Shown here piece after piece: positions 1 to 26,032 of a DNA stretch of 32,000 nt. Where the stretch lies: NCBI GenBank assembly GCA_934647235.1, contig CAKUFG010000022.1, positions 1,138-33,137 on the forward strand, read 5' to 3'. How positions within the stretch are numbered: position 1 is the stretch's first letter; every line of letters begins with the position of its first letter. Made by a program: the position numbers and the translations under genes. A model generated the notes under the pieces. The model made no database searches, had not been told where the DNA came from, and was given only the letters and a program-made list of their open reading frames with translations. This DNA is from an uncultured Clostridia bacterium (GTDB lineage: Bacteria > Bacillota > Clostridia > Christensenellales > Aristaeellaceae).

Positions 1-1165
<1,165 letters not shown>

Positions 1166-1176
1166 TTATATGTAAA

Positions 1177-1192
1177 AACAGCGGATGCTGTT
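1177..1192 (-). terminator. Short terminator-like or attenuator hairpin between grpE and dnaK (AACAGC-GGAT-GCTGTT, flanked by an A-run and a T-run)
   Basis: 6-bp stem with TTTTT on either strand (aaaaacagcggatgctgtttttt). It lies ~57 nt upstream of the dnaK ATG on the transcribed minus strand. Confidence 0.3.
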
Positions 1193-1208
1193 TTTTGCGG
1201 GGATTTGG

Positions 1209-1365
1209 GAAGCCTTCCCCTTGAGGGGAAGGTGGCGAGTGAAACGAGCCGGATGAGGTGTAGCCGCCCAAGCGGCGTTTCTTTATCGCTTTGCTAACGG
1301 CTGCTACGCAGCCTACACCTCATCAGTCAGCTTTCGCTGACAGCTTCCCCTCCAAGGGGAAGCCT
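1209..1365. repeat. Two inverted copies of the modular hairpin repeat, forming a ~157-bp imperfect dyad in the grpE-dnaK spacer
   Basis: Forward unit: GCCTTCCCC-TTGA-GGGGAAGG, GGCGAGTGAAACGAGCC, GGATGAGGTGTAGCC, GCCGC-CCAA-GCGGC. Reverse unit: GGCTGC-TAC-GCAGCC, TACACCTCATC, GTCAGC-TTTC-GCTGAC, GCTTCCCC-TCCAA-GGGGAAGC. The same modules recur at 19039-19605, 22100-23052 and 25005-25061. Confidence 0.85.
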
Positions 1366-18529: not shown

Positions 18530-18925
18530 TCAGCGTCTGCGCGCGCGAAGCATGGCGATCAGCCCGCCTGCGGCCACGCCCATCAGGATGTCGGCGGCGT
18601 AAGCATAGGGCGATAGATGCTGGGCTGTCAGCACGGCGTAGAGCATCACGCCCACGGCCATATAAATCAGCCCCACCAGCATGCCGCGCAGCAGCGGTCT
18701 GCCTGTGCCCGTGCCCACCGCCGCGCGCACGCCCAGATAGATGGCGGCCAGCTTGATCACCTGATTGACCGCGCGGATCACCCCATCGCCCAGCCGTGCG
18801 AAGGACAGCACCAGTGCAAAGATAATCACTGCCGCCGCTGTAAAGAGCGCCGCGATCAGCACGCCCCGAATCACCGCCCCGGCCGGCGACGCGCCCCGCC
18901 TGATGGCCTGCGTATGCATATGCAT
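18530..18925 (-). CDS. Small 4-TM membrane protein (TIGR04086/YrzE-like)
   Basis: 131-aa ORF with four hydrophobic segments. Family assignment from memory only. The start may be the second ATG (18919) given RBS spacing. Confidence 0.5.
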   Translation of the reverse strand: MHMHTQAIRRGASPAGAVIRGVLIAALFTAAAVIIFALVLSFARLGDGVIRAVNQVIKLAAIYLGVRAAVGTGTGRPLLRGMLVGLIYMAVGVMLYAVLTAQHLSPYAYAADILMGVAAGGLIAMLRARRR

Positions 18926-19038
18926 GCCCCCTTTCGTTTGTGGTTCATTTTATGCGGGGCGGAAGGTTAATATGATTGCAGGGAGAGTCTTTCGTTGGGC
19001 GCATTGGTGAAGCAGCGAGGCTTTGCAGCGCAATAACT

Positions 19039-19605
19039 GCACGACTATAAAAGCCTTCCCCCTGAAGGGAGCCGGAGTACCGCCCCTGCCTGTGGCAGAA
19101 TAGGGCGGGCGCAGGCTCAATGAGGCAACGAGTATTTGAGCAATATTTTGCTCAAATACGACTATGCCGAATTGCGGACAAGGTGTCGAGCCGCAGCGAG
19201 ACGGATGAGGGGGAACGTAACGGATTAATATTGCTTGCATTTCCGCGCAGCAGGCCCCCTCATCAGGCTCATTGCATTCGCCAGCTTCCCCCCTAGGGGA
19301 AGCCTTATTTGTGAGTGCTCTGACGCGGGTATCGCAGAGCGTTTGTTGACAAAAGCACGACTATAAAAGCCTTCCCCCAGATGGGGGAAGGTGTCGAGCC
19401 GCAGCGAGACGGATGAGGGGGAACGTAATGGATTAATATTGCTTGTATTTCCGCCAACAAGCCCCCTCATCAGGCTCATTGCATTCGCCAGCTTCCCCCC
19501 GAGGGGAAGCCTTATTTGCAAGCTTTCTGATATGGTTATCGCGGAACGCTCGCTGACAAGTGCACGACTATAAAAGCCTTCTCCCAGACGGGAGAAGGCT
19601 TTTAT
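19039..19605. repeat. Array of the modular hairpin repeat: ~207-bp tandem unit (19355-19561), an earlier copy carrying a ~109-nt insertion, ending in a terminator-like hairpin A
   Basis: GCACGACTATAAAAGCC recurs at 19039, 19355 and 19562. Inverted unit pairs lie at 19176-19304 and 19365-19511. GATGAGGGGG pairs with CCCCCTCATC. Lone hairpin aaaaGCCTTCTCCCagacGGGAGAAGGCtttt at 19572-19603. Confidence 0.85.
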
Positions 19606-19640
19606 ATGACAATCAGCAAAGCGCACTGCAGCAGCACGCC

Positions 19641-19675
19641 AAAAAAGAACATCGCCGTGGGTTTCCCCACGGCGA
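19641..19675 (-). terminator. Intrinsic terminator of the His/Cys-repeat protein gene
   Basis: Minus strand reads TCGCCGTGGG-gaaa-CCCACGGCGA, a perfect 10-bp stem, followed by TGTTCTTTTTT. It begins 23 nt after the stop codon. Confidence 0.75.
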
Positions 19676-19697
19676 CATTTAGTTATTGCGATGGTTA

Positions 19698-21482
19698 TCA
19701 GAACTCGATCTTCACGTAGATGTAGGCGGCGGCAGCACCAGCCAGTTCATCCGCGACGCTGATAGCCTTCTCGAATTCGTAGGCCTTTTCGGCAGTGATG
19801 TCCTTGGAGGGAGCTTCGTTCACGAAGGTCAGGAACGCTTCGGTGGGAACGGCGCTCAGCTCGTACTTAACAGTCACAGTGCCTTCCTTCACTTCGACAA
19901 CCAGCTTGCCAACCTTGGCGCCCTTAGCGTCAACCAGGTCCAGCTCAGTGATGGCGTCTTTGCTCAGGTCGATCTTAGCATAATCGGCAACTTCCTCGCC
20001 CTTTACGAAAGCGATGGTCTTGCCAGAGGTCTTGGTGGAGGTGGAGCCGGTAGCAGGAATGTACTTCTTGCCCAGCTGCACGCCGCACACGGTGCACTTC
20101 TGGATCTTCTTGCCTTCCTGGGTAGCGGAGGGCTTGCGAACCAGTTCCCATTCGCCGGGGGTATGGCCGGTGGCGGGGATCTTTTCGGTGGTGGTGCCTT
20201 CCTTAACAGCGCCGCACACAGAGCAAGCGATGCCCTTCAGGCCGTCTTCGGTGCAGGTAGCAGCCTTGATGACGGTAGCGGCAGCGGGGAACTTGTGCTC
20301 CTTGCTAGCCTTTACAGTGCGGGTCTTGCCGGTAGCGCCGCAGACCTTGCAGGTTTCGGTTTCTTCGTAATCTTCGCAGGGCTTGCCTTCCTTAACGGCC
20401 TTCCACTCGAAGTCATGATCCAGCTTTTCGAGGGTAACGGTCTTCAGGGTAGCGCCGCAGCGTTCGCAAACGGTGGTAGCAGTGCCTTCGGCAGTGCAAG
20501 TGGGTTCGACAACGGTGGTCTTTTCAACATGCGTCAGAGCATCATCGGTATTGGTCCAGCTCTCCAGCACTTCGCCGCAGCGGGTGCACTTGAAGCCGCC
20601 AACACTGCCCTTGCCGCAAGCAGCAGGAGTCAGAATTTCGGCCTTGGAAGACTTCTTGTGGCCAAGAGCAGCGATTTCCTTGGTTTCGGTATAATCGCAG
20701 CGCTCGCACTTGGCAGTCTTGGAGCCCTTCTCAGTGCAGGTAGCCTCGGTAACAGTGGTCCAAGTCAGGTTGTGACCCAGCTTGGAGCCTTCAGTCTTTT
20801 CAACCTTCTGCTTGCACACAGAGCAAACCTGGTATACGACCTTAGCCTTTTCGCAGGTAGCTTCGCTCACAATGTACTTATCGCCAGTAAGAGTGTGTTT
20901 GCCAGTGGCCTTGATGGGCTGACGGGAGCCTTCCTTTTCGTGGTTGCAGCCAGGAGTGGTGCAAACCAGGGTGGTGTAACCATCTTCGCCGCAGGTAGGC
21001 TGCTTGGTGTACTTGGCATATTCATGGTTGCCAGTAGCAGGAATAGTTTCCTTGGTCAAGATCGCGCTGCACACAGAGCAACGAGTCTTAACAACATAGC
21101 CGTCCTTATAGCAGGAAGCAGGAACATTGTTCTGAGTATAGCTAGGATCAGCCGCTACAGGAGTATGCTTGCCGGTGGTGGCGATGATCTTTTCTTCCTT
21201 GTCGCCGCACACAGTGCACACGCGCTCTTCCTTGCCCTGATCCTTGCAGGTGGCCTTATCTACTTCTACCCAAGCGCCCCAGGTATGAGCCTTCTTGGCG
21301 ATGGGTTCTTCATAAGAAGTGCCACACTTAGAGCAGGTGTAGGTTACTTTGCCTTCAACCTTGCAGGTAGAATGGATTTCAACCTTGGTCCAATTGTGGT
21401 CGCAGGTTTCAGCGGCCAGACAGGGGATCGCGATCGCGATCAACAGAGCCGCAACCACGAGTACGCGAAGAATTTTCTTCAT
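19698..21482 (-). CDS. Secreted protein with 11 tandem ~36-47-aa His/Cys3 mini-repeats plus a ~110-aa C-terminal domain; function unknown
   Basis: ORF trimmed to MKKILRVLVVAALLIAIAIPCLAAE (signal peptide; RBS GGGAGG). Repeats follow H-x(8-16)-C-x(7-9)-C-x2-C(G), for example HTWGAWVEVDKATCKDQGKEERVCTVCG. Codon usage is AAG/GAA/ACC/GCT/GTT rich. Confidence 0.8.
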   Translation of the reverse strand: MKKILRVLVVAALLIAIAIPCLAAETCDHNWTKVEIHSTCKVEGKVTYTCSKCGTSYEEPIAKKAHTWGAWVEVDKATCKDQGKEERVCTVCGDKEEKIIATTGKHTPVAADPSYTQNNVPASCYKDGYVVKTRCSVCSAILTKETIPATGNHEYAKYTKQPTCGEDGYTTLVCTTPGCNHEKEGSRQPIKATGKHTLTGDKYIVSEATCEKAKVVYQVCSVCKQKVEKTEGSKLGHNLTWTTVTEATCTEKGSKTAKCERCDYTETKEIAALGHKKSSKAEILTPAACGKGSVGGFKCTRCGEVLESWTNTDDALTHVEKTTVVEPTCTAEGTATTVCERCGATLKTVTLEKLDHDFEWKAVKEGKPCEDYEETETCKVCGATGKTRTVKASKEHKFPAAATVIKAATCTEDGLKGIACSVCGAVKEGTTTEKIPATGHTPGEWELVRKPSATQEGKKIQKCTVCGVQLGKKYIPATGSTSTKTSGKTIAFVKGEEVADYAKIDLSKDAITELDLVDAKGAKVGKLVVEVKEGTVTVKYELSAVPTEAFLTFVNEAPSKDITAEKAYEFEKAISVADELAGAAAAYIYVKIEF

Positions 21483-21704
21483 GTTCGATTTTCCTCCCAA
21501 TAAATTTTGCTTGGTTATTTATATAACAGCCGCTGCCGACTGTTATAGCAATTTCCGCGCCGGCCTCAGAGCGGGAATCGCAGCATGACCCGCAGCAAGC
21601 GTAGCACGCCGCGGCACTTTATCATGTAAACTGCCCTCCTTTCCCGCGCACGCATTGGGGGCACGAATTACGCACCCGGTACTGCGCATGAGACCGTTTA
21701 CCAT

Positions 21705-21733
21705 AGTATAAATGGAATTACTGGGAATGTCAA
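21705..21733 (-). promoter_or_regulatory. Near-consensus SigA promoter driving the His/Cys-repeat gene through a ~195-nt leader
   Basis: Minus strand reads TTGACA, 17 nt (ttcccagtaattccatt), then TATACT. No other CDS lies between it and the ATG at 21482. Confidence 0.6.
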
Positions 21734-21938
21734 TATGATTTGGTAAGAAAAATTTTAATATTTTCCTGATGATTCGACACAAATTGTTATTTATTATAAT
21801 GAAGAAACTATGGTCAAAACGGTCGGACGGCAAGTTAGCTGTGCGTAACCGGCGCACACCCGGCCCTGCCGCCCCCTGCCCCGCGATCTCCTCGGCGCGG
21901 AAAATGGAAAAAATCATAAAAGAATTTGAATTTACCCC

Positions 21939-21967
21939 TTTACAAACCGCGCGGGGTGTGGTATTAT
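21939..21967 (+). promoter_or_regulatory. Putative promoter of tRNA-Ala with an extended -10
   Basis: TTTACA, 17 nt, then TGgTATTAT. It ends ~11 nt before the mature tRNA 5' end. Confidence 0.45.
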
Positions 21968-21978
21968 AATTGCTGTTC

Positions 21979-22054
21979 GGGGCATTAGCGCAGCTGGTAG
22001 CGCACAACACTGGCAGTGTTGGGGTCAGGAGTTCGAATCTCCTATGCTCCACCA
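21979..22054 (+). tRNA. tRNA-Ala (anticodon GGC), CCA encoded
   Basis: Manual cloverleaf: acceptor GGGGCAT/ATGCTCC with the G3:U70 Ala identity pair, D arm GCGC-AGCTGGTA-GCGC, anticodon arm CAACA-CTGGCAG-TGTTG, T arm AGGAG-TTCGAAT-CTCCT, then ACCA. 76 nt in total. Confidence 0.9.
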
Positions 22055-22058
22055 ATAG

Positions 22059-22087
22059 AAACCGGATGCTTGGCATCCGGTTTTTTT
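22059..22087 (+). terminator. Intrinsic terminator after tRNA-Ala
   Basis: ACCGGATGC-ttg-GCATCCGGT followed by TTTTTTT. Confidence 0.75.
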
Positions 22088-22099
22088 GTTGTGCGGTTG

Positions 22100-23052
22100 G
22101 GGGATGAGGGGGGACGAGGGTACGCCGCTGCGGCGTTACCTTTTAGTTTGTCGTGATAACGGCTACTTCGTAGCCTACACCTCATCCGGCTGGCATCGAG
22201 AGAACGCCGCTGCGGCGGCTACACCTCATCCGGCTCATTGCATTCGCCACCTTCTCCTCAAGGAGAAGGCTTTGGGTTGGCCGTGCTGGCCAGCATATGC
22301 AGGGTGCTGCGTTTGCCCCTCATCCGTCTCGCTGCGGCTCGACACCTTCTCCCAGACGGGAGAAGGCTTTCATGGTCGTGCTGTTGTTGAGTTTAGAAAG
22401 TACATTGCCGCATTGACGCAATCGCCAAAAGGCTTCCCCTTGAGGGGAGGCTCCGCCGTAGGCGGTGGTGAGGTGTAGGCTACGAAGTAGCCGTTATCAT
22501 AACTATTAATAAAAGATAACGCCGCTGCGGCGGCTACACCTCATCCGCTTCACTGCGTTCAGCACCTTCTCCTCAAGGAGAAGGCTTTGGGTTGGCCGCA
22601 TTTTCCAGCATACGCATATCAATGCGTTCCCCCTCATCCGTCTCGCTGCGGCTCGACACCTTCTCCCGAGGGAGAAGGCTTTCATGGTCGTGCTGTTGTT
22701 GAGTTTAGAAAGTACATTGCCGCATTGACGCAATCGCCAAAAGGCTTCCCCTTGAGGGGAGGCTCCGCCGTAGGCGGTGGTGAGGTGTAGGCTACGAAGT
22801 AGCCGTTATCATAACTATTAATAAAAGATAACGCCGCTGCGGCGGCTACACCTCATCCGCTTCACTGCGTTCAGCACCTTCTCCTCAAGGAGAAGGCTTT
22901 TGGAGGAGGATCCTTGCCAGCATACGTGAAACGCTGCGTTCCCCCTCATCCGTCTCGCTGCGGCTCGACACCTTCTCCCGAGGGAGAAGGCTTTTATAGT
23001 TATGCGGTTGGCAAGCGAGGAAAGCCTTCTCCCAGACGGGAGAAGGCTTTCC
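22100..23052. repeat. ~950-bp array of the modular hairpin repeat: macro-units at 22203-22517 (315 bp), 22518-22829 (312 bp) and 22830-~22998 (partial), plus flanking partial units and a terminal hairpin A
   Basis: AACGCCGCTGCGGCGGCTACACCTCATCC recurs at 22203, 22518 and 22830. A 56-nt block catggtcgtgctgttgttgagtttagaaagtacattgccgcattgacgcaatcgcc is identical at 22371 and 22683. There are 9-10 hairpin-A modules in both orientations. Confidence 0.9.
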
Positions 23053-23080
23053 TAATATATCATCCATATCGTCCCAGCGC

Positions 23081-23707
23081 TCAATCCGCGCGCGGCAGGT
23101 TCCAGTGGAAGGTCACGGACAGCGCGCGGATGACCATCACCACCAGCGCGCCCAGGATCATGGCCGTAGCCTGCCCGGCCACGCGCCACAGCAGCGCGCA
23201 CACCAGCGCCCCGGCCAGGGACGCGCAGGCGTACACATCCTTTACAAAGATGTAGGGCGTATCGCCCGCCATCACATCGCGCAGGATACCGCCGCCCACG
23301 CCCGACAGCACGCCCACAAACACCGTCAGGTAGATGCCTGCCTCCGGCTGCGCGGCATAGGCGTTGCTGACCCCGACCACTGAGAAGATGCCCAGGCCGA
23401 TCGTATCCATCGCCAGCATGGTGCGCTGATAGGCGTTGTGGTTGCCCGTCAGGTAGTAGCGCACGGGCCTGATAAACACAATAGCCGCCACCAGCGTGGC
23501 CGTGAAGGCGTAAATGGGGTTCTGAAACGTATAGGGCGGAATAACGCCCAGCAGCAGATCGCGGATAATACCGCCGCCCACGGCTGTGGTCAGCGCCAGC
23601 ACGCACACGCCAAATATATCCATCCGCTTGCGGATGGCGATGATCGCCCCTGACACGGCAAAGGCCACCGTGCCGATCAGCTCCAGCGCCAGCACAAACG
23701 CATCCAT
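23081..23707 (-). CDS. Trimeric intracellular cation channel (TRIC/UPF0126, YadS/YicG-like) membrane protein
   Basis: 208-aa ORF with duplicated UPF0126 motifs (GTVAFAVSGAIIAIRKRMDIFG...GGGIIRDLLLG and GVGGGILRDVMAG). RBS AAGGGGG present. Confidence 0.85.
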   Translation of the reverse strand: MDAFVLALELIGTVAFAVSGAIIAIRKRMDIFGVCVLALTTAVGGGIIRDLLLGVIPPYTFQNPIYAFTATLVAAIVFIRPVRYYLTGNHNAYQRTMLAMDTIGLGIFSVVGVSNAYAAQPEAGIYLTVFVGVLSGVGGGILRDVMAGDTPYIFVKDVYACASLAGALVCALLWRVAGQATAMILGALVVMVIRALSVTFHWNLPRAD

Positions 23708-23849
23708 GCGCCCGCCCCCTTTCCAGTCTACAGCGCATTATATATCATGCCATGCCGCGCGCGCAAGCGTCCCGCGCATGAAAAAATAAAGGAAAAACGC
23801 CGCCTGTGTCGAATGGTAATATTTATACGTTTTTTGTAAGGAGAGGCCC

Positions 23850-24782
23850 ATGAACACCCTGCATTTCAAGTATGCCGTGGAGGTAGAGCGCTGCGGCTCC
23901 ATCACCCAGGCCGCCGAAAACCTCTATATGGCCCAGCCGAACCTGAGCAAATCCATCAAGGAGCTGGAGGACACCCTCGGCTTCCAGATTTTTGCCCGCA
24001 CGGCGCGGGGCGTGGTGCCCACTGCGCGCGGGCGCGAGTTTCTGGTTTACGCGCGCGGCATTCTCAATCAGCTGCAGGCCATGGAGGCCCTGTCCCAGCG
24101 GCACGACGACGCGACCCAGCGCTTCAGCCTGTCCATGCCCCGCGCCGGATATATCGCCGATTGCTTCTCCGCCCTGGTGGACAGCCTGGATAAGGGCAGC
24201 CCCATGGATATCCGCGTGCGCGAGGCCAGCGCCCTGCATACCATCAACGACGTTGCCGACGGCCAGTTCCAGCTGGGCATTTTCCGCACAGAGCTGAAGG
24301 ATGCGGGCTATTATCTGAACTATCTGCGCGAAAAATCGCTGCAGTACGAGCCTGTGTGGGAGTATGACGCCCTGCTGCTGCTGTCGCAGGAGCATCCGCT
24401 GGCCGCGCGCGACCGCATCGAGCCGGAGGACCTGGCCCCCTATACGCAGATCATCTATGGCGATCTGGCCGTCCCGTATCTGCCTGCGTCGGACACCCTG
24501 CGCCCGCAGGATCCCCTTGCCGGCCGCATCCAGGTGTATGGCCGGCTGGAGCAGCTGGATCTGCTCAGCCGTCTGCCCGATACCTATATGTGGGCCTCGC
24601 CCGAAGCCCCCGCCGCCCTGCGCCGCTTCTCGCTGGTTATGCGCAAGTGCTTCAATGCCTCCATCCGCTATCAGGATATCCTCGTCTACCCCTCCGCCTA
24701 TCAGCTTTCCGCGCTGGACCGCCGCTTCGTCTCGCTCCTTTCCAGCGCCCGCACGCGCCTGTCGCACCAGACGTATACCTGA
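23850..24782 (+). CDS. LysR family transcriptional regulator
   Basis: 310-aa ORF with an N-terminal LysR HTH (LHFKYAVEVERCGSITQAAENLYMAQPNLSKSIKELEDTLGFQIFARTARGVVPT). RBS AAGGAGAGG present. Divergent from the TRIC gene. Confidence 0.9.
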   Translation: MNTLHFKYAVEVERCGSITQAAENLYMAQPNLSKSIKELEDTLGFQIFARTARGVVPTARGREFLVYARGILNQLQAMEALSQRHDDATQRFSLSMPRAGYIADCFSALVDSLDKGSPMDIRVREASALHTINDVADGQFQLGIFRTELKDAGYYLNYLREKSLQYEPVWEYDALLLLSQEHPLAARDRIEPEDLAPYTQIIYGDLAVPYLPASDTLRPQDPLAGRIQVYGRLEQLDLLSRLPDTYMWASPEAPAALRRFSLVMRKCFNASIRYQDILVYPSAYQLSALDRRFVSLLSSARTRLSHQTYT

Positions 24783-24862
24783 GGCGCGGCAAGAAGGCTT
24801 TATTATTTGAGTTTTGAAAGACGCTTGGCCGTTCTATAGATACGAGTGACAAATGCAGCCAG

Positions 24863-24987
24863 CCCCGTGGCACGCCGATGGAATCGGCGCGGGCTGGCGA
24901 AGCCAGGCCAAGGGGGAAAAAGCGAAAGGCTGACTGGGCGAAGCTTGCTTCAGACCAGGCAGCACAAGGTTTTCACCTGCCACGGGG
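24863..24987 (+). repeat. 125-nt structured element bounded by 10-bp terminal inverted repeats, copy 1 (candidate ncRNA or MITE-like element)
   Basis: CCCCGTGGCA...TGCCACGGGG closes the element. Internal hairpins are CGCCGAT-GGA-ATCGGCG, CTGGC-GAA-GCCAG, GAAGC-TTG-CTTC(A) and GCTGACTGG/CCAGGCAGC. Strand is guessed from G.T pairs. Confidence 0.6.
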
Positions 24988-25004
24988 AATGCTATCCGGC
25001 AGAA

Positions 25005-25061
25005 CCCCTCATCCGTCTCGCTGTTCGCTCGACACCTTCTCCCGCTTGGGAGAAGGCTTTT
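25005..25061. repeat. Single reverse-oriented unit of the modular hairpin repeat, lying between the two 125-nt elements
   Basis: CCCCTCATCC, then GTCTCGCTGTTCGCTCGAC, then CCTTCTCCC-gctt-GGGAGAAGG, then CTTTTATAGTTATGCG. Confidence 0.8.
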
Positions 25062-25143
25062 ATAGTTATGCGCTATGCAAGAAACTTGGCTGTTCTGCCC
25101 AACTACCGCAGTCAGCCATGCCTGATTTTCGCACCCAATCACG

Positions 25144-25268
25144 CCCCGTGGCACGCTGATCGCAGATCAGCGCAGGGCGTGCGCAGCACGACCATAGGGG
25201 AAAAATGAAAAGTTGCCTGGGGGAGCTTGCTCCTAACCAGGCAACTTAAGTTTTTCCCTGCCACGGGG
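25144..25268 (+). repeat. 125-nt structured element bounded by 10-bp terminal inverted repeats, copy 2
   Basis: Same termini and same length as copy 1. Hairpins are CGCTGATC-GCA-GATCAGCG, CGTGC-GCA-GCACG, GGAGC-TTG-CTCC and AGTTGCCTGG/CCAGGCAACT. The helices differ from copy 1 by paired changes. Confidence 0.6.
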
Positions 25269-25372
25269 CACAAAACGGCAGTGCCGCCTTCCAGTTTTAT
25301 TCAATTGCCTTTCACGTCACACGCAGCCTTCTTTGATTCTTTCTTGGGCTCCAAGAAAGAATCGTACCCCTT

Positions 25373-26032
25373 CTACCGCTTCTCCACCACGCTGCCGCCC
25401 TTGTGGATGCAGTTGGCGGGGACGGTGCCGCGAACGCTGACCAGGGGGTATACCTGCGCGCCGCGGCCAATGACGGTGCCGGGATTGAGCACCGCGCCGC
25501 AGCCGATCTCGGCGTAATCGCCCAGCATCGCGCCCAGCTTTTTGAGGCCGGTCTCCATACGCTCGCTGCCGCCATGCACCACCACCGGCTGGCGATCGCC
25601 CTTGACATTGCTGGTAACAGCGCCCGCGCCCATGTGCGCGCGGTAGCCCAGCACGCTGTCGCCCACATAGTTGTAGTGCGGAACCTGCACGTTGTCAAAG
25701 AGGATCACGTTTTTCAGCTCCGTGCTGTTGCCCACCACCGCGTCGCGGCCAATGAGCGCGCTGCCGCGGATATAGGCGCAGTGGCGCACCTCCGCGCCAT
25801 GATCGATGATGACGCACTCGCCCAGGCACGCCGTGGGCGCAACCACCGCGTCGCGCGCAATCCATACCGTGGGCGAAGGATGCAAGAATTCGCTGATGGG
25901 CAGCGTTTCGCCCAGCGCCAGAATAAAAGGCCTGATGCGCGGCAGCACCTCGTGCGGATACTCGCACTTTTCCAATAGCTCCGCCGCGCGCGTATGCGTT
26001 AAATCAAACAGATCGCTTACCCTGTACAGCAT
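25373..26032 (-). CDS. Left-handed beta-helix (hexapeptide repeat) acyltransferase, resembling the GlmU C-terminal domain, standalone
   Basis: 219-aa ORF with hexapeptide repeats (IIDHGAEVRHCAYIRGSALIGRDAVVGNSTELKNVILFDNVQVPHYNYVGDSVLG...). Its RBS GGAGGA lies inside the glmM 3' end, so the two are translationally linked. Confidence 0.7.
   Translation of the reverse strand: MLYRVSDLFDLTHTRAAELLEKCEYPHEVLPRIRPFILALGETLPISEFLHPSPTVWIARDAVVAPTACLGECVIIDHGAEVRHCAYIRGSALIGRDAVVGNSTELKNVILFDNVQVPHYNYVGDSVLGYRAHMGAGAVTSNVKGDRQPVVVHGGSERMETGLKKLGAMLGDYAEIGCGAVLNPGTVIGRGAQVYPLVSVRGTVPANCIHKGGSVVEKR

Follow-up and report, generated by a model that had tools for sequence, protein, structure and literature searches.

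What keeps the stem of a short hairpin paired while its sequence changes from copy to copy, and is it RNA or DNA that folds? This question is raised by a stretch of 32,000 nucleotides (nt) from an uncultured Clostridia bacterium (Christensenellales, Aristaeellaceae; assembly GCA_934647235.1, contig CAKUFG010000022.1, positions 1,138 to 33,137 of the forward strand), hereafter called the window, in which an earlier note, made from the sequence alone, had described a recurrent small hairpin (hairpin B) with a fixed tandem G·A core and covarying flanking base pairs. We found that hairpin B does not stand alone as a motif but is the second loop (loop 2) of a larger unit that obeys the rules of a DNA triple helix. 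We give a probability of roughly 0.65 to the reading that this DNA unit, about 45-55 nt long, is able to fold as a purine-motif (class II) intrastrand triplex.

Architecture and distribution of the unit

The strand that carries the G·A core (the GA strand) begins the unit with a pyrimidine arm, [C/G]CTTCYCC, continues with a loop of 4-6 nt and a purine arm, GGRGAAG[G/C], and after one T has hairpin B and a tail, [G/T]GATGAGG. The two arms, typically CCTTCTCC and GGAGAAGG, are separated by the first loop and form hairpin A, which in all the 14 full units of the window has 8-9 bp and a loop of 4-6 nt, and likewise in other genomes. Loop 2 is a T followed by a hairpin of 13-19 nt in the window and of 11-24 nt elsewhere.

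Using a pattern search together with a covariance model of the unit, we identified in the window 13 canonical copies, two divergent ones and a truncated one (13 copies had E<1e-4 with the covariance model). They were found only in four intergenic clusters (1213-1363, 19179-19510, 22224-22990 and 25007-25056), two of which are tandem macro-repeats, of 207 nt in 2.0 copies and of 312 nt in 2.5 copies. For the heptamer GATGAGG we counted 18 occurrences in the window, where 4.6 were expected and shuffled sequences had at most 9.

We then considered one genome per species and scanned it with a pattern that left hairpin B free and fixed some parts of the unit. The unit was present in 70 species-level genomes, among them many Clostridia, members of the Caulobacterales and Hyphomicrobiales and single genomes of Phycisphaerales, Acidobacteriota and Dehalococcoidales, as well as in 27 viral contigs. 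The scan gave a total of 186 units in 98 loci, and 80 of these units (43%) stand in tail-to-tail inverted pairs.

Hairpin B

All the hairpin B variants listed in the earlier note are present, with offsets of 0-3 nt. Precisely, GGCGAATGCAATGAGCC is on the minus strand at 22232-22248, 19266-19282 and 19473-19489 (the last two had been placed at 19263 and 19470), GCTGAACGCAGTGAAGC at 22547-22563 and 22859-22875, and GTCGAGCCGCAGCGAGAC at 19185-19202(+), 19393-19410(+), 22326-22343(-), 22640-22657(-) and 22952-22969(-). Two variants occur at single sites, GTCGAGCGAACAGCGAGAC at 25015-25033(-) and GGCGAGTGAAACGAGCC at 1234-1250(+), and the copy reported to have only Watson-Crick pairs, GTCAGCGAAAGCTGAC, is found at 1326-1341(-). 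The three double changes pointed out between the paralogous copies at 22232 and 22547 are real, since they involve six bases and the segments 22199-22273 and 22514-22588 otherwise differ at one position. We abandoned, instead, their interpretation as compensatory changes that arose in place: the exchange of pre-existing hairpin alleles between units is more economical, because each allele has counterparts elsewhere (that of 22232 at 19266 and 19473, on different arms, and for the other the frame GCT-GA…GA-AGC in other taxa, at two loci).

The statistics for hairpin B rest on 95-102 distinct copies from about 70 species. In the 95 distinct copies aligned to the model, the seven stem pairs of hairpin B were paired in 90.3% of cases versus 65.2% after shuffling, and none of 500 shuffles reached the observed value; the covariation score was 0.488 versus 0.127, slid controls gave 23-39%, and six of the seven pairs change on both sides. 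The 28 ungapped sequences agreed (87.8% paired versus 61.4% shuffled, again 0/500), as did the five outer pairs of the 102 distinct sequences (87.8% versus 58.3% when the 3' halves were shuffled). The paired state lies far beyond that of the shuffled sequences, so that drift of a palindrome, against which the earlier note had argued, is not what we observe.

Among the 102 distinct B hairpins the internal mismatches were G·A in 35 cases, A·G in 21 and other in 2 (hence 56 of 58 of the G·A type), and all the 20 tandem mismatches were 5'-GA/3'-AG, in agreement with the fixed core described before. Fifteen tandem mismatches, from 12 sources, are at stem positions 4-5 (one at 5-6), and all their 30 strand contexts read 5'-Y-GA-R-3'. 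This context is the one that favours sheared tandem G·A pairs. No copy has a single mismatch at the positions of the tandem GA, which makes the tandem GA a discrete alternative to two Watson-Crick pairs. Wobble pairs are G·T in 25 cases and A·C in 2. Taken together, 56 G·A and 25 G·T oppositions suit the purine-rich strand, and only about five (A·C, C·T) would favour the other one. Such strand-specific mismatches indicate a fold selected on the purine-rich strand only, unlike a cruciform or a protein-bound palindrome. Hence the proposal of selection on a folded single strand is retained as regards the stem, whose sequence is free and yet paired and whose mismatches are strand-specific; it is not retained as regards hairpin B as a stand-alone motif.

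At the apex, GNA triloops closed by C-G were found in 57 of the 102 hairpins, the remainder being mostly G…A loops, with some GNRA or UUCG tetraloops. In the window, C-GCA-G (22547, 22859) and C-GTA-G (22453-type) are strict fits, and the other apices have a T-A closure or CGCA, GAACA or TGAAA loops. These apices can be compared with those of the mini-hairpin DNAs d(GCGNAGC) and d(GCGNNAGC) studied by Hirao and colleagues (reviewed in PMC13037366), on account of the GNA triloops and of many G-NN-A loops; in both loop types a sheared G·A pair is expected to form the base of the loop. Hairpin B differs from them in that it caps a longer stem, of 5-8 bp, and carries the extra tandem G·A in about 15-20% of copies. 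By nearest-neighbour folding the GA-core hairpins have energies from -0.7 to -1.1 kcal/mol as DNA and from -2.4 to -5.3 as RNA, with z-scores that are mostly non-significant. Mini-hairpin DNAs are reported to have sheared G·A pairing, poor binding of SSB and a stability missed by standard energy models (PMC13037366), which the weak predicted energies of hairpin B would fit. The support for hairpin B is comparative and not thermodynamic.

The mirror tail

The tail of the unit repeats the purine arm as a mirror repeat and not as its complement. In fact, GGATGAGG reversed is GGAGTAGG, and when this is set against the arm GGAGAAGG all the eight triplets are canonical (G·GC, A·AT, T·AT), which matches the requirement of an antiparallel (purine-motif) third strand. 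In the window, the triplet score was 8/8 in 8 units and 7/8 in 7 units; in the divergent unit 22432-22473 arm and tail have both changed from A to G at mirrored positions, and a C pairs with T.

Two bases that are neighbours in the predicted triplex register, S at the end of the purine arm and K at the start of the tail, change together. Among the 102 distinct units the S/K combination was G/G in 77, C/T in 19 and C/A in 2, with 4 exceptions; the coupled forms are hence GAAG[G] with [G]GATGAGG and GAAG[C] with [T]GATGAGG, the latter corresponding to a T·CG triplet. The rule was obeyed in 43 of 43 viral units and also in copies that were outside the selection made by the scan pattern. In the window the same hairpin B allele occurs with both states (C/T at 19266 and 19473, G/G at 22232), so that linkage to a hairpin B lineage is not enough to account for the coupling. 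Opposite a C-G pair, T is the natural base with residual affinity. Some interaction of natural T with CG pairs has been described for antiparallel triplexes (PMC9757063).

A similar rule was observed at the ninth position. In all the 72 cases in which hairpin A has a ninth C-G pair the ninth tail base is G, in all the 3 with a T-A pair it is T, and without a ninth pair it is G in 33 cases and T in 47.

The mirror relation also holds for arms of other sequence. We used a generic search for a purine arm with a complementary arm, one nucleotide and a hairpin, leaving the tail unconstrained. It yielded 22 different purine arms, 14 with a perfect mirror tail and 4 more with a score of 7/8 (arm/tail examples are GGAGAGGG/GGGTGAGG, GGGGGAGA/AGAGGGGG, GAGGGAGG/GGAGGGAG, GAGGGGGC/TGGGGGAG, GGAGGAGC/TGAGGTGG and AAGGGAGG/GGAGGGAT). 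The mean mirror score of the 22 arms was 6.95/8, against 4.83±0.25 when the tails were shuffled among the arms (maximum 5.77 in 5000 shuffles); in the direct, non-mirror register the mean was 3.9, and no tail was perfect.

This evidence bears on a switch between a hairpin and a G-quadruplex, in which four GG tracts (GG-AGAA-GG … GG-AT-GA-GG) would form two tetrads with hairpin B in a long central loop. The tracts are G-rich, quadruplexes that contain a stem-loop are known, and a switch of this type has reportedly been proposed for the E. coli relative of the unit (bioRxiv 10.1101/032615). The tracts, however, have two G only, and a quadruplex predicts neither the A/T mirror positions, nor the coupling of C to T, nor the rule at the ninth position. 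In addition, the nuclear magnetic resonance (NMR) spectrum of TMECO, the E. coli relative, has 18 imino signals, which fit a triplex but not a quadruplex (PMC4666352). We regard this switch as hardly credible.

Comparison with known repeats

Repeats that could fold into an intrastrand triplex (BoxC, PIT, TMECO) have been known in E. coli for decades. To our knowledge no function has been found for the bacterial triplex repeats, nor has it been proved that the triplex is of importance in vivo. When the literature was searched with the literal sequence strings of our unit, only primers and unrelated matches were obtained, and the related strings GGGAGAGGG/GGGTGAGGG led to PMC4666352. That paper describes the E. 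coli motif CCCTCNCCC-N3-6-GGGNGAGGG-N3-GGGNGAGGG under the names BoxC, PIT (potential intrastrand triplex) and TMECO, and places it among the class II motifs for intrastrand triplexes. According to that source, Holder et al. 2015, which cites Hoyne & Maher 2000 and 2002, these repeats are found in E. coli and other Proteobacteria. Their single-stranded DNA triplex was shown by circular dichroism and NMR, and they are intergenic, unbiased by strand, arranged in inverted pairs and linked to variability of the locus (PMC4666352).

Our unit shares with them the class II order, the mirror reverse-Hoogsteen purine segment and a T opposite one A. It is equally G/C-rich, intergenic, multi-copy, without strand bias and often arranged as inverted pairs of two subtypes; a single mismatched triplet is a common feature, as in most TMECO copies of E. 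coli, and one locus clearly varies between strains. The arms of the unit are, on the other hand, CCTTCTCC/GGAGAAGG and many others, not CCCTCNCCC/GGGNGAGGG, and the TMECO consensus differs from the arms (CCTTCYCC/GGRGAAGS) and the tail (KGATGAGG) of the window. Loop 2 is a T plus a mini-hairpin of 11-24 nt instead of 3 nt, the hosts are Clostridia, Alphaproteobacteria, others and phage contigs, and a C that interrupts the purine arm is met by a T of the third strand. We conclude that the unit is a hairpin-bearing variant of the BoxC/PIT triplex repeats: it has their layout, triplet code and genomic behaviour, and departs from their short loop and consensus. BoxC-like relatives with a short loop are found in the same loci as the units, in six cases.

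Loop 2 of TMECO has 3 nt, and the search with ITxF allowed 1-6 nt and the earlier search of Hoyne et al. 0-10 nt (PMC4666352); with these limits the published searches would miss the hairpin-bearing form. No description of this form was found in our literature search, whose coverage was incomplete.

The unit may also be compared with H-DNA, with which it has in common the homopurine mirror symmetry and the triplet code of the purine motif. H-DNA is, however, a long duplex mirror repeat that leaves the complementary half-strand unpaired, whereas the unit has all the three strands on one strand, together with a Watson-Crick hairpin and the presumed clamp hairpin.

The proposed fold

In the fold that we propose, the pyrimidine arm CCTTCTCC and the purine arm GGAGAAGG would pair as hairpin A. 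After one T the chain would enter the mini-hairpin B and reverse its direction, so that the next 8-9 bases, (G/T)GATGAGG(G), could lie in the major groove, antiparallel to the purine arm, and make G·GC, A·AT and T·AT triplets and, at the end, T·CG. Hairpin B would thus stand in for the 3-nt loop of BoxC/PIT/TMECO. Its closing G-C pair abuts the first triplet, and it may act as a compact, fast-folding clamp that keeps the start of the third strand beside the end of the purine arm, for which stability and not sequence would matter. A clamp of this kind would explain the free covariation of the stem, the GNA apex closed by C-G and the tolerance of sheared-type G·A only. The fold is most likely adopted, not by RNA, but by DNA that is transiently single-stranded during replication, repair or in transcription bubbles, or that is extruded by supercoiling. 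What the comparison of copies shows is the architecture with its distribution over phyla, the covariation of hairpin and triplets and the strand specificity of the mismatches; a triplex in the cell, the clamp and DNA as the folding medium are inferred from these.

Several observations weigh against this fold. In vivo footprinting of TMECO with dimethyl sulphate detected no triplex, and its double-stranded form was an ordinary duplex (PMC4666352). The standard folding energies of the GA-core hairpins are weak, and nearest-neighbour folding as DNA or as RNA does not by itself set these hairpins apart. The stem GTCGAGC…GCGAGAC was met again in four taxa, where its loops and even the arms differ, which could mean that a protein reads the GA core instead of the core being merely tolerated. 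A common Clostridial arm, GGGGAAGG, keeps the tail GGATGAGG and hence one mismatched triplet (A opposite G-C); the matching tail, GGATGGGG, was seen only once, the sixth triplet is without covariation, and this counts against a perfect triplex. T·CG is, moreover, a weak triplet. The family counts ignore common ancestry, and the pattern by which the loci were gathered itself fixes some parts of the unit. Finally, hairpin A on the other, C-rich strand is followed by CTTT(T) and looks in this genome like an intrinsic terminator, so that part of the unit may have a role at the RNA level.

The last point can be taken further, by supposing that the units are intrinsic terminators, in which hairpin A and the T residues on the C-rich strand stop transcription and hairpin B and the tail are passengers. 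A terminator scan does call the antisense hairpin A at several units (25035-25056, 22971-22990, 19391-19370), it finds 25 terminator-like sites against 7.1 expected, and the divergent spacers, which bear promoters, are avoided (10/75). Nevertheless, the units of Alphaproteobacteria are without a T-run, units occur in either orientation relative to the genes, and PIT elements had no terminator or promoter activity in E. coli (PMC4666352). Hairpin B lies outside any such signal. Since it also leaves hairpin B, the mirror tail and their covariation unexplained, we consider this explanation very improbable.

DNA or RNA

The earlier note had left the folded strand as RNA or single-stranded DNA. The folded single strand stands, and of the two media DNA is favoured, RNA being the less likely. 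We considered for this purpose the orientation of the units and the published properties of the two nucleic acids.

The GA strand, whose bias was checked against the flanking genes and the GC skew, has none: it is the G-rich strand in 63 of 131 units, where the genes on both sides are co-directional, 18 units are sense and 23 antisense, and relative to the upstream gene the counts are 42 versus 33. These orientation counts used crude calls of open reading frames (ORFs); in GC-rich genomes, spurious long ORFs overlapped 27 units. RNA is reported not to adopt triplexes of the purine motif (PMC4666352), and d(GCGNAGC) mini-hairpins melt at 76.5 °C as DNA versus 39 °C for r(GCGAAAGC) (PMC13037366).

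A structured RNA motif would require that the units are transcribed and that the sheared tandem G·A of hairpin B is a platform for binding proteins or RNA, or else that hairpin B stabilises 3' ends, as repetitive extragenic palindromes (REPs) do in mRNA. Strand-specific mismatches of the G·A and G·U type suit RNA as well, some apices are GNRA or UUCG, and RNA parameters slightly favour the GA strand over its complement (-4.1 vs -3.8, -2.4 vs -1.5 and -2.6 vs -1.8 kcal/mol). One pair of units, moreover, is inside the hrcA-grpE-dnaK operon, in the spacer between grpE and dnaK, and must be transcribed. Against RNA are the same orientation counts, the 43% of units in inverted pairs, by which any transcript has one unit in the non-folding sense, and the dominance of GNA triloops, which are far more stable as DNA than as RNA (PMC13037366). 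The covariation of the mirror tail would also remain without explanation, because purine-motif triplexes exclude RNA (PMC4666352), and the units have no Rfam match even at E≤10. An RNA motif is in our opinion quite unlikely.

As to the Rfam search, with Rfam 15 the only match in the window was a tRNA-Ala, even at E≤10 over 18900-25400, and in 18 other loci nothing overlapped the units. Two known RNA motifs were considered and discarded. A hammerhead ribozyme had been hinted at by CUGAUGAG 3' of hairpin B; most copies, however, read CGGAUGAGG, GAAA and stem III are absent, and Rfam is blank. For a K-turn or 'tandem-GA' riboswitch motif the internal loop is symmetric, there is no 3-nt bulge and there is no Rfam match.

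Mobility and variability

The 312-nt repeat of the window differs in copy number between strains. In 99%-identical strains from other gut metagenomes (three loci were compared) there are 1.5 copies versus the 2.5 of the window; two such strains are short of exactly one repeat at 22199-22994, in line with the variability reported for TMECO loci. In other Clostridia, we observed units at fixed spacings inside tandem macro-repeats (453, 401 and 399 nt in three loci); fixed spacings of 400-450 nt suggest that the units promote local tandem duplication. By analogy with BoxC/TMECO, the units may be repeats of a selfish or a structural kind that favour rearrangements nearby.

After many Clostridial units a third module was observed, which we called hairpin C: the tail GATGAGG is followed by TGTAG, by a mini-hairpin of free sequence with GNA-type loops and by CGTT. 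The region folds as a hairpin in 16 of 18 cases (9 taxa). A GTAG tag followed by a palindrome is the hallmark of REP elements.

The units could accordingly be regarded as a mobile repeat, similar to REPs and their doublets (REPINs) or to miniature inverted-repeat transposable elements, with hairpins, the G·A core of hairpin B included, that would be recognised by a structure-specific enzyme acting on single-stranded DNA (such as a RAYT or IS200-type HUH transposase), by which the units would be copied to other places in the genome; this is compatible with a triplex fold. There are many nearly identical copies with different flanks, viral contigs included, the tail-to-tail doublets are like REPINs, the adjacent hairpin C has GTAG and then a hairpin, one hairpin B allele occurs with different arms, and the copy number of the macro-repeat varies between strains. 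The unit is, in fact, similar to REPs, REPINs and bacterial interspersed mosaic elements also because it consists of short, imperfect intergenic palindromes, in inverted doublets and mosaic clusters, presumably read as single-stranded DNA. It differs from them, however, in lacking GTAG at hairpin B (the tag is in hairpin C only) and in being defined by a mirror (triplex) rule and not by a palindrome. REPs are normally species-specific, whereas the unit is almost identical in Clostridia and Alphaproteobacteria, and the mirror rule kept by at least 18 of 22 arms points to a physical pairing code rather than to a sequence preference of a protein. Among the ORFs scanned in the 32-kb window there was no transposase, integrase or HUH/Y1 gene, RAYT included, and no target-site duplication or empty site could be defined. 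For these reasons we consider a mobile repeat of this kind unlikely as the explanation of the unit.

A sister lineage (LysR 93% identical) has in common with the window only the LysR/Gly_transporter gene pair, and since its synteny ends at the gene borders it is uninformative on empty sites or target duplications.

Implications of the proposed triplex fold

A further step, which we regard as doubtful, is that the clamp-triplex fold of single-stranded DNA is under natural selection across phyla and phages, either as a node that excludes SSB or as a recognition structure for some structure-specific copying machinery. Nodes on single-stranded DNA might serve as priming, restart or pause signals, as do the mini-hairpins at the phage G4 and ssiA origins. 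If selection of this fold were true, the three independent triplet covariations, T·CG included, would be the first comparative evidence of an intrastrand DNA triplex that both forms and matters in cells. Such covariation is accepted evidence for RNA helices and has so far been missing for DNA triplexes: here the triplet code is kept while the sequences change, with at least 18 arm variants at 7-8/8, the coupling of G·GC and T·CG and a third strand as long as the stem. Because of the triplet covariation and of the cross-phylum spread, the unit is relevant to the study of non-B DNA and of bacterial repeats. The triplex-type architecture with a built-in hairpin, the presumed clamp, extends to many Clostridia, Alphaproteobacteria, other phyla and phage contigs, and the G·A-rich mini-hairpins are one instance of a vocabulary of stable DNA mini-hairpins. 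If the fold is confirmed, Caulobacter or Brevundimonas, as tractable hosts, would make the role of bacterial triplex repeats directly testable. In annotation, the units should not be labelled as small RNAs or ORFs.

Features of the window

The coordinates of the units and of the associated modules are given in Table 1.

Table 1. Units, associated modules and macro-repeats in the 32,000-nt window
Feature	Position	Strand	Details
Complete unit	1213-1258	+	47.6 bits; hairpin B GGC-GA-G-TGAAA-C-GA-GCC 1234-1250; between grpE and dnaK
Hairpin C-like module	1259-1279	+	Such modules also in seven other loci
Hairpin C-like module	1296-1317	-	
Complete unit, C/T type	1318-1363	-	Hairpin B all Watson-Crick, GTCAGC-GAAA-GCTGAC 1326-1341; tail-to-tail partner of 1213-1258
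207-nt macro-repeat	19176-19598		2.0 copies; an inverted unit pair per copy
5'-truncated unit without Y arm	19179-19210	+	31 bits; hairpin B 19185-19202 and tail; edge of 207-nt repeat
Complete unit, C/T type	19258-19303	-	Hairpin B GGCGAATGCAATGAGCC 19266-19282
Complete unit	19370-19418	+	Hairpin B GTCGAGCCGCAGCGAGAC 19393-19410; tail-to-tail with unit 19465-19510
Complete unit, C/T type	19465-19510	-	R arm GGGGAAGC; hairpin B GGCGAATGCAATGAGCC 19473-19489; tail TGATGAGG
Lone hairpin A	19577-19598		CCTTCTCCC-AGAC-GGGAGAAGG, flanked by A-run and T-run; second copy 23025-23046; degenerate copy near 19047-19070
312-nt macro-repeat	22199-22994		2.5 copies; three units and hairpin C modules per copy
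Hairpin C module	22199-22223	-	TGTAG, mini-hairpin CCGCCGCAGCGGCG, short conserved flank
Complete unit	22224-22269	-	44.2 bits; triplet score 8/8; Y arm 22262-22269, loop 1 22258-22261, R arm GGAGAAGG 22250-22257, linker T 22249, hairpin B GGC-GA-AT-GCA-AT-GA-GCC 22232-22248, mirror tail GGATGAGG 22224-22231
Complete unit	22318-22366	-	Hairpin A 9 bp; hairpin B GTC-GA-GC-CGCA-GC-GA-GAC 22326-22343; tail GGATGAGGG
Variant unit, opposite strand	22432-22473	+	Triplets 7/8; R arm GGGGAGGC, T, hairpin B CCGCC-GTA-GGCGG 22453-22465, tail TGGTGAGG
Hairpin C-like module	22474-22495	+	
Complete unit	22539-22584	-	45.4 bits; R arm 22565-22572; hairpin B GCT-GA-AC-GCA-GT-GA-AGC 22547-22563; tail 22539-22546
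Complete unit	22632-22678	-	Hairpin B GTCGAGCCGCAGCGAGAC 22640-22657
Variant unit, second copy	22744-22785	+	R arm GGGGAGGC, tail TGGTGAGG; hairpin B 22765-22777
Complete unit	22851-22896	-	Hairpin B GCTGAACGCAGTGAAGC 22859-22875
Complete unit	22944-22990	-	Hairpin B GTCGAGCCGCAGCGAGAC 22952-22969
Solitary unit	25007-25056	-	41.9 bits; hairpin B GTC-GA-GC-GAACA-GC-GA-GAC 25015-25033

A conserved flank of about 15 nt, GCACGACTATAAAAG (variant GCATAACTATAAAAG), is located 5' of many hairpin A copies in this genome, at 19039-19053, 19355-19369 and 19562-19576 on the plus strand and, as the reverse complement, near 22370-22384, 22991-23005 and 25057-25071; the local repeat is hence longer than the core unit found across phyla. 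The lone copies of hairpin A look like bidirectional terminators built from the repeat's own sequence.

The genes of the window are ordinary chromosomal ones, i.e. hrcA-grpE-dnaK, glycosidases, an ABC transporter, a two-component system, SSB, tRNA-Ala, a LysR regulator and GlmM. The inverted unit pair 1213-1363 is enclosed by grpE (1370-1954, minus) and dnaK (2-1120, minus) of the hrcA-grpE-dnaK operon, and a strong hairpin with a T-run, at about 1166-1192, adjoins it. A long ORF at 323-1297(+) matches Pfam PF10712 (NAD-GH) with E = 2.7e-78 and yet lies on the strand opposite to dnaK (HSP70, E = 3e-183), and we regard it as almost certainly no gene. At 19698-21482(-) there is a secreted protein of 594 aa with about ten Cys-rich repeats (ATCxxxGxxxxxCxxCG…GH), without a Pfam match, and clusters of the repeat unit are on both its flanks.

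An unrelated repeat of about 125 nt (24862-24988 and 25143-25269, plus strand), closed by CCCCGTGGCA…TGCCACGGGG, brackets the unit 25007-25056. Its hairpins covary from copy to copy (GCCGAT-GGA-ATCGGC versus GCTGATC-GCA-GATCAGC, and CTGGC-GAA-GCCAG versus CGTGC-GCA-GCACG), the minimum free energy as RNA is -69.5 kcal/mol (z = -4.1) and one copy is found in the sister lineage (locus L259, 6133-6356). This repeat, for which Rfam gave no match, may represent a structured RNA or else one more DNA repeat rich in hairpins.

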